From contig CAZJEQ010000004.1 in NCBI GenBank assembly GCA_964545165.1, forward strand, positions 17,716 through 81,715: DNA of 64,000 bases, in the 5' to 3' direction. A program made the position numbers and the translations under genes. The notes under the pieces are model-generated. The model had not been told where the DNA came from, ran no database searches, and saw only the letters and a program-made list of their open reading frames with translations. This stretch comes from an uncultured Candidatus Saccharibacteria bacterium. GTDB taxonomy: Bacteria; Patescibacteriota; Minisyncoccia; Phycocordibacterales; UBA2100. Positions 59,911 through 64,000 of the stretch are shown piece after piece. Numbering within the stretch: the stretch's first letter is position 1; each line of letters opens with the position of its first letter.

Positions 59911-59953
59911 GTAGAAACTTGGCTTTTTACCGTTTGCGCCGTACTCTACCTAG

Positions 59954-61774
59954 ATGTGCGGCATTTTTGCGTATACGGGCAAGAAAAACGCAGGCGAGGT
60001 CCTGCTCGACGGACTCGTCTCTCTTGAATATCGCGGCTACGACTCGGCTGGTATCCATGTGCCCGAGAGCGGCTTGATTCGTGCCGTAGGTCCTGTGGCA
60101 CACCTGCGTCGCAAAGTGCCTGCCGGATACTTTGGGCTCAGCGGTATCGCGCACCTGCGCTGGGCTACGCACGGTGAGCCGAATGAAGTGAATGCACATC
60201 CGCACTCGGATTGTGATGGCGAAATCTGGATTGTGCACAATGGCATCATCGAAAATTTTCGCGAGCTCAAAGCTGAGCTTGCTGCGAAGGGACACACCTT
60301 TAAATCTGAGTCTGATACGGAAGTGCTCGCACACCTCATCGAGGATGAAATGAAAAGCGATGCGGATTTTGAGAAAGCCTCGCTCCGCGCATTGAACCGT
60401 GTGCGTGGCACCTACGGGATCGCGATGCAGTACAAGAAAGAGCCGGAGCGCCTCATTGCGGCGCGCATGGGCTCTCCCATTGTGCTCGGTCTCGGCGATG
60501 GTGAGCACTTCATCGCGTCCGATGCCTCGCCGATTTTGCCGCACACCAACAAGGTGGTCTTTCTCGAAGACGGGGAGGTGGCGGTCCTGACGCCCGGTGA
60601 ACATCGCATCTTCAAGCTCGACGCGTCGCAGGTAAAGCGCGATGCCACCGAAATTGAGTGGAGTCCTGAAGAAGCACAGCGCGGCGGCTACGAGCACTTT
60701 ATGCTTAAGGAAATTATGGAGGGTCCCGAGGTGGTAGAAAATTCGGTACGTGGACGCCTGCTTGTCGAAGCGGGCAACGTGAAGCTCGGAGGACTCGAGA
60801 GTGTGGCAGAGCAGCTCGCAAAAATCGATCGCATCATCATTGTCGCGTGCGGGACCGCCTACTATGCGGGGCTGATCGGCGAGTACATGATCGAAGAGCA
60901 CGCGGGAATTCCCGTCGAGGTAGAACTCGGCTCTGAATTCCGGTACCGAAAGCCCGTTATCAATGCACGAACTGCCGTCCTCGCGATTTCGCAGAGCGGT
61001 GAGACGCTCGATACGCTCGAAGCAGTACGTGAAGGGAAGCGCAATGGTGCGCTCGCCCTCGGTATCGTAAACACGGTGGGTTCGACCATTGCGCGCGAGA
61101 CCGAAGCCGGCGTCTATAACCATGCGGGGCCGGAAATCAGCGTGGTCTCCACCAAAGCATTCCTCTCACAGCTCACCGTGCTCTCGCTCCTCACTATTTT
61201 CCTCGGTCGCCAGCGCGGCATGTCGGAGGAGACCGGAAAGAAGCTCGCGGAAGAGCTCAAGCACTTGCCGGAGAAACTCCGCAGTATTCTTGCGCAGGAG
61301 CCCGAGATTAGAGCGCTCGCAGAAAAATACAAAGACAGTCGCGACTTTATGTTTATCGGTCGCAAGTATAATCTCCCGATTGCGTACGAAGGTGCACTCA
61401 AACTCAAAGAATGCTCCTATGTGCATGCCGAAGGGTGCGGTGCAGGGGAGTTGAAGCACGGACACCTCGCCATGATCGATGAGAATTTCCCGATTGTCGC
61501 GATTGCGACCAACGACAGCGTCTATGGCAAGGTCTTCTCTGCTATCCAGCAGGTGAAAGCCCGCAAAGGGCCCGTCATCGCGATTGCGACAGAAGGTAAT
61601 AAAGAGATGGCGGAAGTTGCGGATGACGTGATCTATGTGCCGAAGACGATCGAGATGCTCTCACCGATTCTCAACGTCGTGCCGCTCCAGCTCTTCGCGT
61701 ATCACTTCTCGCGCCAGCGTGGCCTCAATGTCGATCGTCCAAGAAACCTTGCTAAGTCTGTAACTGTTGAGTGA
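59954..61774 (+). CDS. glmS: glutamine--fructose-6-phosphate aminotransferase
   Basis: N-terminal MCGIFAY (Cys2 nucleophile); two SIS domains; C-terminal ...LAKSVTVE. Confidence 0.95.
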   Translation: MCGIFAYTGKKNAGEVLLDGLVSLEYRGYDSAGIHVPESGLIRAVGPVAHLRRKVPAGYFGLSGIAHLRWATHGEPNEVNAHPHSDCDGEIWIVHNGIIENFRELKAELAAKGHTFKSESDTEVLAHLIEDEMKSDADFEKASLRALNRVRGTYGIAMQYKKEPERLIAARMGSPIVLGLGDGEHFIASDASPILPHTNKVVFLEDGEVAVLTPGEHRIFKLDASQVKRDATEIEWSPEEAQRGGYEHFMLKEIMEGPEVVENSVRGRLLVEAGNVKLGGLESVAEQLAKIDRIIIVACGTAYYAGLIGEYMIEEHAGIPVEVELGSEFRYRKPVINARTAVLAISQSGETLDTLEAVREGKRNGALALGIVNTVGSTIARETEAGVYNHAGPEISVVSTKAFLSQLTVLSLLTIFLGRQRGMSEETGKKLAEELKHLPEKLRSILAQEPEIRALAEKYKDSRDFMFIGRKYNLPIAYEGALKLKECSYVHAEGCGAGELKHGHLAMIDENFPIVAIATNDSVYGKVFSAIQQVKARKGPVIAIATEGNKEMAEVADDVIYVPKTIEMLSPILNVVPLQLFAYHFSRQRGLNVDRPRNLAKSVTVE

Positions 61775-61836
61775 GTTGCGCTCCGCCAGCAGGCGGACTC
61801 GCCAAGTCGGTGACGGTGGAGTAAATATCACCAAAA

Positions 61837-61865
61837 CAAAACGCCGCACTACGTGCGGCGTTTTG
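61837..61865. terminator. bidirectional rho-independent terminator
   Basis: AAAACGCCGCAC-tacg-TGCGGCGTTTTGG. Confidence 0.6.
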
Positions 61866-61880
61866 GTATCGGTTACGAGA

Positions 61881-62642
61881 TTACTCGCGAATGCCGACTC
61901 GAATTTGTCGAGCGGTGAGTGAGCCATCTGCCTGAGGCGCGCCTTCTGCCTTGATCATCTTGCCGACCGTGAGATCAGCGATGGTGCCGAGCGATGGTCC
62001 TGCTCCGGTAGACGGATAGACCTGGATGCTCGTTGATGCCACCACATTCACGATGCGCGTGTTGCCATCTTTCATCTGCACGGTAATGCTCGAGTTGGCG
62101 CTCGCCGAAATGGTGCCCGCAACTTCTGCCCGATGCATATCCATGATCTGATTGCCGAGTCCCATACCGCAGGCGCGCTCAAAGAAGCCGCGGGTCATCG
62201 GACCTACAGTACCCTCGGTTGTGGAAGCGATACCCATGCGCATCTGGAATTTAGCCATGGCGTTCGCTGTGAGCGGTCCGTAAAATCCCGTGGCCTGGCC
62301 GCGGAAGCCGACTGCCGGATCCTGCGCGAGCAGCTCCTGGAGCTGCTTCACATCCTCACCCTGCGAGCCGGTGCGGAGATCGCGCTTGAGCATGATGCAC
62401 ATCTCTTTGCCCATCTGACCTGGTGGCATCATCGGCCGCTCGGCTTTTTTATCGGTCATGTATTCCGCCTTGACCATCGGCGTTGTCGAGGCGAGCAGTG
62501 TCTTGAGCTGCATCTGCAGCGCCTGGATTTGCGAGAGGATCGACTTCACCTGCACTTCGACTGATGCCGATTGTGCGGAAGCCGCTACGGGCAACATGAG
62601 TGCTGCGGCAGCGATCCCTGTAATAATGTGCTTTGTTTGCAT
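61881..62642 (-). CDS. secreted protein with a peptidoglycan-binding-like domain
   Basis: Signal peptide MQTKHIITGIAAAALMLPVAASAQSA; PG_binding_1-like region (LQELLAQDPAV...GFYGPLTANAMAKFQMRMGI); start taken at an internal Met of the track ORF. Confidence 0.6.
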   Translation of the reverse strand: MQTKHIITGIAAAALMLPVAASAQSASVEVQVKSILSQIQALQMQLKTLLASTTPMVKAEYMTDKKAERPMMPPGQMGKEMCIMLKRDLRTGSQGEDVKQLQELLAQDPAVGFRGQATGFYGPLTANAMAKFQMRMGIASTTEGTVGPMTRGFFERACGMGLGNQIMDMHRAEVAGTISASANSSITVQMKDGNTRIVNVVASTSIQVYPSTGAGPSLGTIADLTVGKMIKAEGAPQADGSLTARQIRVGIRE

Positions 62643-62721
62643 AACATCTCTAGCTATTAATAAACGTACGTATAAGTATACTGCTGACTTTCTGGTGGAG
62701 ACGCAGGTCATTGCATAAGAA

Positions 62722-62744
62722 AACGGGCGCCCGAAGGCGCCCGT
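62722..62744 (-). terminator. terminator for the minus-strand gene
   Basis: AAACGGGCGCC-cgaa-GGCGCCCGTT; on the minus strand it is followed by UUUUCUUAUG. Confidence 0.5.
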
Positions 62745-62762
62745 TGAATTTTGACGGTCGGC

Positions 62763-63677
62763 TCAGAGAGCGAGCGGACCGTGTACAGAATTGTCGTTGA
62801 TGATCTGTTTTGCGCTGTACTGCACGTAGCCGGTGACCGGCTCGTCGCCGATGGCCAGAATTACGATCTGCGTGTTGTCGCCATAATCGACAAAAGGCGG
62901 CACGAATGTCTGTGCAATGAGCGATCCTTGCTCGTAGCAGCCGCGGAGAAATTTTGCTTTTCCCTGCGGCTTCCCGATGATGACACTCTGCCGTGCTTGT
63001 CGCGCCTCGGGCCCATCCTTGTTGCAGAACTTCAGCACCACATCGCTCGGCACTGCTTCCCAAGGCGTCGTGGAGGCCATGTAGTGCCGAGGAATGCGCA
63101 CACGCTTCCCACCGAGGGCATCCAGACGCTCTTGTTCGAAGCGAGCAAGGTTGCGCTTGTCATCGAGACGCAGGCCGTCGCGCGGCAAGACGCCGAGCGT
63201 CTCGTCGTACGGGACACGCCCGTACACGTAGATCTCATCATCTGCCCACGCCCAGTCCCGGAAGTTGCAGATGTCAGACCGTTCGCCGCGATGACCTTCA
63301 AGTTCGCGCACGAAGAGCTCGAGCTCAGGCAAGTACGCTTCTTCGACCGTGGCGAAGCTGAAGGGGAATCGCAATTTGTTGGGATCGATGGGGATGTTGC
63401 TCGCCCGCGCGAGATTGAGCGCGGTGCCCCAGCCATCAACGAACGCAGCGTTGATCTCGAGGATGGAGAGCGAGTCCTGGTCGAAGTACGCATCGATCCG
63501 GTAGTAGGGCTCCCTCACCTTGAGGAATTTATTGTATGCCCGCAGCATGCGGCGCAATTCCTCGACGAGCGGTGAGGCGAGCGAGACGCCGCGCTCTGAA
63601 ACGCGGTGCCTCGCACCTTCGTAAATACAAGGGGCGACGACGCTTCGATCCATATCGAATGCTTGCAACGTGATCAT
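62763..63677 (-). CDS. hypothetical protein, possible ATP-grasp-like fold
   Basis: 304 aa from MITLQAFDM; motif SILEINAAFVDGWG. An alternative longer start at 63779 would place a GC hairpin inside the CDS. Confidence 0.45.
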   Translation of the reverse strand: MITLQAFDMDRSVVAPCIYEGARHRVSERGVSLASPLVEELRRMLRAYNKFLKVREPYYRIDAYFDQDSLSILEINAAFVDGWGTALNLARASNIPIDPNKLRFPFSFATVEEAYLPELELFVRELEGHRGERSDICNFRDWAWADDEIYVYGRVPYDETLGVLPRDGLRLDDKRNLARFEQERLDALGGKRVRIPRHYMASTTPWEAVPSDVVLKFCNKDGPEARQARQSVIIGKPQGKAKFLRGCYEQGSLIAQTFVPPFVDYGDNTQIVILAIGDEPVTGYVQYSAKQIINDNSVHGPLAL

Positions 63678-63734
63678 TTTGACCTCAAAGAACGAGTGAC
63701 TCTTTTCGGCGAGAGCCGAGGCACATAGAGAAAA

Positions 63735-63756
63735 GCCCCCTCCTTGCAGAGGGGGC
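63735..63756 (-). terminator. hairpin plus U-tract (terminator or attenuator) between metK and the downstream gene
   Basis: Minus strand GCCCCCUCUGCAAGGAGGGGGC followed by UUUUCUCUAU. Confidence 0.4.
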
Positions 63757-63851
63757 TGATCTGAAATATTGGCGCGCATCAAATCAATCCTCTCTGCATG
63801 AGGGGTGCTGATGCGGGGTCGGGAGTGACCAATACTTGCTCATATATTCCG

Positions 63852-63879
63852 AGTATACGTATCTCGCGAAGTGCGTCAA
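63852..63879 (-). promoter_or_regulatory. sigma70-like promoter downstream of metK (TTGACG-16-TATACT)
   Basis: Minus strand TTGACGcacttcgcgagatacgTATACT; 8 nt later an ATG opens a 19-aa uORF (MSKYWSLPTPHQHPSCRED). Confidence 0.4.
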
Positions 63880-63883
63880 TAAT

Positions 63884-64000
63884 TTAGATTTTCACGACCT
63901 CTTCCCACGGACGACCGGCGACGCCGAAGTGGCCGTAGGCGGCGGTCTCCTTGAAGATCGGGCGGGTGAGGCCGAGGCGCTCGATGATGGCCCGTGGGCG
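63884..64000 (-). CDS. metK: S-adenosylmethionine synthetase, C-terminal fragment (continues beyond the window)
   Basis: Reverse translation ...[38 protein letters not shown] matches the conserved MetK C-terminus. Confidence 0.8.

Follow-up and report, generated by a model that had tools for sequence, protein, structure and literature searches.

A leader on the minus strand of a 64,000-nucleotide (nt) stretch of DNA from an uncultured Candidatus Saccharibacteria bacterium (contig CAZJEQ010000004.1; the whole 64-kb stretch is referred to as the window) is probably a ribosome-mediated leader-peptide transcription attenuator, which would sense the supply of histidyl-tRNA and control the downstream gene for an ATP-grasp ligase. 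The leader contains an upstream open reading frame (uORF) with in-frame histidine codons, followed by RNA segments that can form either of two mutually exclusive helices, and both features recur upstream of the orthologous gene in other Patescibacteria. The single-sequence statistics of the leader are weak (8 terminator-like sites were found with 3.6 expected, and the leader fold has a z-score of –2.7). Since its features are statistically unremarkable on their own, the case rests on the comparison with relatives, where the evidence is strong.

Elements of the leader

The initial annotation described a promoter, a uORF with its stop codon, an in-frame ATG, a hairpin and a 304-residue open reading frame (ORF) downstream of metK, and every one of these elements was found on the minus strand, to which all leader and gene coordinates below refer unless stated otherwise. 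Its proposal of a leader peptide or attenuator acting on the downstream gene is supported, and can now be specified as ribosome-mediated, with histidine codons and with an antiterminator strand in the last uORF codons, both of which had gone unrecognised. In contrast, its hint at a link with S-adenosylmethionine (SAM) synthetase and its alternative of a coding sequence (CDS) starting at 63779 did not stand, as described below.

The leader begins with a sigma-70-like promoter (63852–63879) consisting of TTGACG (63879–63874), a 16-nt spacer and TATACT (63857–63852), which is a 10/12 match and the sole such site within 60000–64000. The uORF MSKYWSLPTPHQHPSCRED (63784–63843; 19 codons plus stop) opens with an ATG at 63843–63841, 8 nt past the –10 hexamer and without a Shine-Dalgarno (SD) sequence, and closes with TGA at 63786–63784; the ATG at 63779 follows 4 nt past this stop and shares the reading frame of the large ORF. 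The candidate regulatory codons are CAU-CAG-CAC (His-Gln-His; 63805–63813), which the covariance model described below sets against the CAU/CAC triplet codons of relatives. Region 1 (CACCCCUC; 63800–63807) pairs either with region 2 (CCUC:GAGG) or with region 4. Region 2 (UGCAGAGAGG and AUUGAUUUGA; 63779–63798), which provides the antiterminator with its 5' strand, includes the uORF stop and has its partner at 63759–63746. Regions 3 and 4 form the intrinsic terminator stem-loop AGCCCCCUCU-GCAA-GGAGGGGGCU (63734–63757), after which a U-rich tail, UUUUCUCUAU (63724–63733), is read in the sequence.

The regulated gene (62763–63677) encodes a 304-residue protein resembling ATP-grasp acid-amine ligases, from a Patescibacteria-specific family, and its ATG at 63677 lies 56 nt downstream of the terminator stem. 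A box GUUCUUU (63693–63687) and an SD sequence GAGG (63686–63683), together spanning 63683–63693, precede this start, with GAGG 5 nt before the ATG, and both are present again in most relatives. A second hairpin was also observed between terminator and start, as UUUGCC...GGCAAA in relatives (for example L012:2446-2494) and as CGGC-UCUC-GCCG at about 63717–63706 in the window. Together with the GUUCUUU box (window 63733–63683), it could be a translational element.

Conservation among relatives

A homologue database search returned 105 homologues of the regulated protein, nearly all about 300 residues long and all from Patescibacteria (CPR) metagenomes. From these organisms 80 related loci (numbered with the prefix L) were gathered, every one of them metagenome-assembled sequence, comprising 52 distinct upstream regions. 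A GC-rich hairpin with a U-tail lies 25–70 nt before the start codon in 36 of the 52, and in most such leaders an upstream ORF ends 20–33 nt before the hairpin.

An alignment of the leaders with MAFFT was dropped, because stem length differs between lineages and the 3' arms of their terminators were no longer aligned with one another. Instead, a covariance model was built from 13 core sequences, all of them distant relatives of the window, with the 1:2 hairpin and the terminator given as the structure. In the whole 64-kb window the model has a single match, exactly at the leader (63725–63816, from the histidine codons to the terminator tail; 36.2 bits, E = 4.6e-6, the E-values being rough), and this match covers the full length of the model (positions 1–108). 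Among the related loci, plus-strand matches directly upstream of the orthologous gene were obtained for 54, representing 44 distinct sequences. A first terminator heuristic, which sometimes took the 1:2 hairpin or the wrong frame, was replaced by analysis anchored on the model, and the L080 leader was set by eye to MNTATLTSLHCHINLSCASGLV.

Matches of 20–39 bits to the model were also obtained on the strand opposite the attenuator (L009, L012, L038 and others), because the element is quasi-palindromic, regions 1 and 3 being alike, as are regions 2 and 4. These rows were filtered out before the clean alignment was made, and the same artefact will affect any genome-wide scan.

A cmscan of 62000–64000 against Rfam at E ≤ 10 gave chance-level hits only (miRNA, and Thr_leader on the wrong strand; 17–18 bits compared with gathering thresholds of 55–97), and in the same scan the leader did not match His_leader (RF00514), T-box, SAM or other riboswitch models.

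Two mutually exclusive RNA structures

The fold of the window RNA is a long hairpin that joins the final part of the uORF (CACCCCUCAUGCAGAGAGG) by base pairing to the terminator region. The calculated energy of this antiterminator is –23.2 kcal/mol before region 4 is transcribed and –17.8 kcal/mol with region 1 masked; the terminator alone has –20.1 kcal/mol, and the 1:2 helix –4.8 kcal/mol. The ribosome-free minimum-energy fold (–40.5 kcal/mol) combines a 1:4 with a 2:3 pairing, and its GC-rich stem abuts the U-tract.

Both structures are maintained among relatives. Pairs were counted in a clean alignment of 32 sequences, whose fitting had used the terminator-state structure and not the antiterminator. 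The antiterminator is nevertheless paired in 90.3% of cells, compared with 38–55% when the partners are slid by 1–3 columns; 15 of its 22 pairs changed on both sides (shuffles 7.7 ± 1.6, 0/500 as high), and its covariation score is 0.256 (shuffles 0.147, 0/500). The 1:2 helix plus terminator is paired in 90.6% of cells (61–74% when slid by 1–3 columns), with 7 of 18 pairs changed on both sides and a covariation score of 0.226 (shuffles 0.167, 0/500), all covariation figures being subject to the mutual relatedness of the sequences, through which the shuffle controls overstate independence. Taken separately, the terminator helix, in which 5 pairs changed on both sides, is 91.6% paired in the 32 relatives, and the 1:2 helix is 89% paired. 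An alignment-free check gave a mean of –19.3 kcal/mol for region 2:3 duplexes formed within a locus and –13.2 kcal/mol for those formed across loci (permutation p < 1e-4).

The stretch GGNUUGNNUUGAUG is read in the window in a frame that differs from that of the core group, so that its conservation is one of RNA and not of peptide; its place in the lower part of the antiterminator helix explains it. A further helix between GCAUCA (the histidine codons) and UGAUGC (the stop region) forms in the window, but is uncompensated where the histidine codons are CAC in other lineages, and was not counted as selected. We regard the presence of an attenuator with alternative structures as very probable.

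Histidine codons in varying host reading frames

HH, HHH or HxH is encoded in frame at one and the same model position in each of the 44 distinct leaders, amounting to 2–4 histidine codons per leader, with CAU and CAC interchanging among leaders. The spacing around these codons is constant. They lie just 5' of region 1, which begins 0–3 nt past the last histidine codon; the first histidine codon stands 56–84 nt before the terminator; and the leader ORF stops 9–39 nt before the terminator, with its stop codon inside region 2 or up to about 12 nt past it. Most leaders have 10 codons from the last histidine to the stop; the window clade, L074 and L027 have 6. With typical ribosome footprint sizes, this geometry would fit a ribosome that would mask region 1 when stalled on the histidine codons and region 2 when positioned at the stop.

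The ORF that hosts the codons varies. In about 30 leaders a YerC/HisR-like protein of about 104 residues (PF01371, TIGR02531) ends in the histidine tail; YerC corresponds to HisR, a histidine-responsive repressor of the TrpR family (Ashniev et al. 2022, PMC9413887). In L014 (413-1324) HisR is replaced by a 303-residue prephenate-dehydrogenase-like ORF (PDH_N, PDH_C) that ends with the leader tail ...KRKNHHTSSESGRGLV*, from which it follows that the tail can be attached to an unrelated gene. In L035 and L074 the tail is a separate uORF placed after a tail-less yerC. Altogether, 12 distinct leaders have a short uORF of 19–32 codons (window, L002, L004, L009, L027, L031, L035, L053, L054, L074, L077 and L080), which in the window clade, L009, L027 and L031 is free-standing, with no adjacent yerC; for L053, L054, L077 and L080 the upstream sequence is too short to judge the presence of yerC. 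The 12 short uORFs lack an SD sequence, and their placement mostly suits leaderless translation. Close to the window, the uORF is kept as MNRYWSTPTPHQHPSCRED (L002) and MQIYWSTPTPHQHPSCRED (L004), with synonymous third-position changes, and histidine is the only residue common to the free-standing uORFs. Because the histidine codons are invariant while the host ORFs vary and the conserved RNA stretch changes frame, they carry the signature of a histidine-codon leader peptide, and we consider it likely that the attenuator is ribosome-mediated and specific for histidine.

An alternative is that the attenuator is real but responds to something other than histidyl-tRNA, such as the general rate of translation, another amino acid, or a protein or metabolite acting in trans on the RNA, the histidine codons being a relic of the HisR tail. 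The window has HQH only, and its uORF also holds prolines (PTP...HP), one tryptophan and one cysteine; the regulated gene has no established function; and GGNUUGNNUUGAUG with its inner hairpin, which is kept regardless of frame, could be a binding site. This conserved non-coding stretch is, however, already explained by the lower antiterminator helix, and no Rfam family was matched even at E ≤ 10. Moreover, HH, HHH or HxH is the sole coding feature that the 44 leaders share, in host ORFs that are unrelated in other respects, and the exchange of CAU for CAC indicates that the codon is kept and not the RNA sequence; in our reading of the alignment, the CAC codons have no compensating pairing partner. 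A signal other than histidyl-tRNA is an unlikely reading, if the most probable of the alternatives.

Some loci hold further genes related to histidine. In L010 (1009-2465; the same as in L043) the motif and the ATP-grasp gene are separated by hisS (TIGR00442, 359 bits), the L010 motif being weak (E = 0.17), and in L014 (2847-4094) hisS stands at the end of the cassette, after a gene for a hydrolase of the HAD type. For the HisR consensus of Firmicutes, cacTTTA-N6-TAAAgtg (PMC9413887), an inspection by eye near the window promoter gave nothing convincing.

Promoters and leaderless placement of the uORF

In the closest relative, L002 (84% identity), the two promoter hexamers are kept, as are the spacing of 16 nt between them and the 8 nt that separate the promoter from the ATG, while the spacer sequence has diverged. 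Across six loci with only a uORF, a 9–11/12 promoter match ends 6–9 nt before the uORF ATG: TTGACG-16-TATACT with 8 nt to the ATG (window and L002), TTGACT-17-TAGAGT with 6 nt (L009), TTGACA-17-TACAAT with 7 nt (L027), TTGACA-17-TATTCT with 9 nt (L031) and TTGACA-16-TAGGAT with 7 nt (L054). None of the six has a separate SD sequence, the sole SD-like match (L054) lying inside the –10 hexamer. The leader mRNA is therefore probably leaderless, and the leaderless uORF of the initial annotation gains comparative support from the same placement of promoter and ATG in relatives.

The hairpin might also be read as a plain intrinsic terminator of metK (of hisR in relatives), with the uORF and the promoter hexamers arising by chance. 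No other terminator was found from metK to the hairpin, so the attenuator terminator probably ends metK transcripts too, and the promoter-like site is within chance expectation. A hairpin that also ends metK transcripts, as it may well do, nevertheless leaves the rest unexplained. The hairpin accompanies the ATP-grasp gene and not metK, being placed 25–70 nt before the ATP-grasp gene in 36 of the 52 distinct leaders whichever gene is upstream; the upstream complementary strand covaries with it; and the geometry of uORF and promoter recurs in independent lineages. This explanation is already disfavoured, and we give it very little probability.

Proposed mechanism

We hypothesize that transcription would start at or within 1–2 nt of the uORF AUG, driven by the TTGACG-16-TATACT promoter, and give a leaderless mRNA, and that a ribosome would translate the 19-codon leader while RNA polymerase makes the next 70–80 nt. 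With histidyl-tRNA plentiful, the ribosome would reach the UGA at 63786–63784 and cover region 2 (UGCAGAGAGG), the 3:4 terminator would form, and transcription would stop at the U-tract. With histidyl-tRNA scarce, the ribosome would stall on the CAU/CAC codons at 63813–63805, and its footprint would hide region 1 (CCCCUC, immediately 3'). The free region 2 would then pair with region 3 and the terminator loop, leaving region 4 partnerless and allowing read-through into the gene. On transcripts without a ribosome, for example those arising by read-through from metK, region 1 would pair with region 2 or region 4, and the hairpin abutting the U-tract would cause termination. Histidine would be the physiological signal.

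Several points weigh against this proposal. The evidence base is sequence and computation, and the relatedness of the sequences noted above tempers the covariation figures. Taken by itself, the promoter-like match is no more than chance predicts (1 found, 1.9 expected). In the window the 1:2 helix has little stability (4 bp, –4.8 kcal/mol), and the window clade has only two histidine codons with a glutamine between them (HQH). In L010, which has a tail-less yerC, no in-frame start codon was found for the histidine codons. No connection of the regulated protein to histidine is known, and these organisms are not known to make histidine.

The regulated protein and its start

The AlphaFold model of the 304-residue protein is confident (pLDDT 94.7), and predicts an ATP-grasp fold of the glutathionylspermidine-synthetase/YgiC type. 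No Pfam or NCBIfam family was matched at E ≤ 0.1, and a profile search against PDB sequences gave only chance hits, to RPB4.

Since an ATP-grasp enzyme is encoded directly downstream of a small ORF, the uORF peptide or HisR tail might be thought a substrate or precursor of the ligase, either as a ribosomally synthesized and post-translationally modified peptide (RiPP-like) or through C-terminal modification, and a tail ...GRGLS is indeed kept in the core group. The combination by which graspetides are recognised, an ATP-grasp enzyme of the macrocyclase type and a conserved core peptide, was however not found, and a precursor role is very improbable.

Conservation of the protein starts at MITLQAF, that is, at the ATG at 63677, in alignments of 24 and of 69 sequences, which fixes the true start of the gene. 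Automated gene calls place it instead at the ATG at 63779, giving 338 residues (P0001; L081:1582-2598; window 63779-62763 on the minus strand), and the initial annotation had likewise considered that the CDS begins there with the hairpin inside it, suggesting conservation of the N-terminal 34 residues at the protein level as a check. This extended CDS, for which the ORF open from 63782 and the agreement of the automated calls (P0001, L081) may be cited, is refuted by comparison with relatives and is scarcely credible: the 34-residue extension has no counterpart in the alignments of 24 and 69 homologues, L002 has ACG at the position equivalent to 63779 and there the frame of the extension does not run on into the gene, seven relatives (L005, L006, L007, L009, L011, L012 and L026) have an in-frame stop 1–2 codons 5' of the conserved start, the SD sequence GAGG stands 5 nt before the ATG at 63677, and the nucleotides concerned are kept as RNA helices. 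The gene model is corrected accordingly, the automated 338-residue call having hidden a regulatory leader, a terminator and 34 non-conserved codons in a supposed CDS.

Gene neighbourhood

Across Patescibacteria the attenuator belongs to a conserved cassette of three genes, in which it follows a yerC/hisR-like gene and precedes those for the ATP-grasp ligase and for a HAD-type hydrolase of about 200 residues (L005-L080; for example L012:2068-3400+, L010:693-4033 and L031:2348-4082). A downstream HAD gene was counted in 54 of 57 loci and an upstream yerC in 55 of 66. In the window, by contrast, the upstream gene is metK and the downstream one encodes a PG_binding_1/DUF5666 protein, and a tblastn search of the 64 kb found no homologues of yerC, HAD or hisS, so the window clade appears to have lost both flanking genes, yerC and HAD.

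The metK gene enters the window with its 3' end (63884–64000; stop TAA at 63886–63884; Pfam S-AdoMet_synt_C, E = 2e-7), and a complete metK is called in L081, which is from the same genome as the window. The suggested connection with SAM synthetase is incidental, since the upstream gene in 55 of the 66 related loci is YerC/HisR-like and not metK, and the leader matches no SAM riboswitch or other Rfam family.

Past the regulated gene lies a strong terminator, AACGGGCGCC-TTCG-GGCGCCCGTT with a U-tail (62722–62745), and because of this terminator of its own the regulated gene is taken to be monocistronic in the window genome. A further terminator was observed at 61865–61837, past the gene for the PG_binding_1/DUF5666 protein (61881–62711). 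Beyond these, glmS (606 residues) occupies 59954–61774 on the plus strand, the homologous gene in L001 having GATase and SIS domains; a 398-residue antisense ORF (59927–61123, minus strand) overlaps glmS and is probably spurious.

Discussion

The results suggest that attenuation of the classical kind, in which transcription is coupled to translation, is used by the ultra-small and largely uncultured Patescibacteria, and that the leader peptide is leaderless in some of their lineages. In most cases a full-length regulator gene supplies the leader as its C-terminal tail, and in one case an unrelated enzyme gene does so. Histidine limitation would offer a testable handle on the function of the unannotated ATP-grasp ligase and its HAD partner. 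Patescibacteria are thought to scavenge amino acids instead of making them. We tentatively propose, at somewhat less than even chances, that the attenuator leader peptide of Patescibacteria is encoded by about the last 13 codons of hisR (yerC), so that one segment would hold two sensors, HisR for free histidine and the tail codons for the charging of histidyl-tRNA. Together these would gate a hitherto unrecognised, phylum-wide ligase-phosphatase cassette, ATP-grasp plus HAD, that helps these histidine auxotrophs through shortage. On this view the window would be derived, having lost hisR and HAD but retained the tail as a leaderless 19-codon uORF.

A literature search, incomplete in its coverage and amounting to absence of evidence only, found no attenuator of this kind in Patescibacteria and no leader peptide inside the C-terminus of a regulator. 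As for the regulated protein, its identity to glutathionylspermidine synthetase, YgiC/YjfC and Cp1B, from the ATP-grasp branch that includes the eukaryotic-type glutathione synthetase, is 11–16%, and it is much smaller than these ligases (304 residues compared with 370–600) and has no sequence-profile match to them.

Mycobacteria offer a precedent, their leaderless polycysteine short ORFs being reported to act as cysteine-responsive attenuators (bioRxiv 10.1101/834739). The two systems share an mRNA that starts at the AUG of a regulatory ORF rich in one amino acid and controlling the downstream gene or genes; they differ in that the amino acid here would be histidine and not cysteine, the phylum is another one, and a terminator/antiterminator pair is evident here.

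In some Firmicutes, leader peptides with 3–5 histidine codons lie upstream of terminator/antiterminator hairpins, and HisR and histidine attenuators are alternatives found in different lineages, both controlling his or transporter genes (PMC9413887); Patescibacteria, with 0 occurrences in that paper, are outside its coverage. HisR there belongs to the same TrpR-related YerC family (TIGR02531) that is encoded upstream in most of the Patescibacteria loci. By contrast, regulator and attenuator are here physically fused, the leader being the C-terminal tail of HisR, and the target gene differs; the window itself has no hisR within its 64 kb.

The closest parallels in mechanism are the classic attenuators hisL (Rfam His_leader, RF00514), trpL, pheL, thrL and leuL, which likewise combine a short leader that has clustered codons for one amino acid with alternative 1:2, 2:3 and 3:4 helices, the 3:4 helix being an intrinsic terminator. 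In these, too, the codons lie just 5' of region 1, the stop is at or after region 2, and codons and terminator are separated by about 70 nt. The hisL leader has 7 histidine codons, whereas the leaders of the present family have only 2–4. This leader also matches RF00514 neither in sequence nor in structure, and its target is an uncharacterised ATP-grasp ligase (with a HAD hydrolase in relatives) instead of a his biosynthetic gene. Unlike hisL, the window leader is probably leaderless and lacks an SD sequence, and the leader of most relatives is the 3' end of a full-length gene. As proposed, the attenuator thus works in the manner of the hisL/trpL type, by a known mechanism, and differs from that type in the host of its leader, in its target and in its leaderless form.

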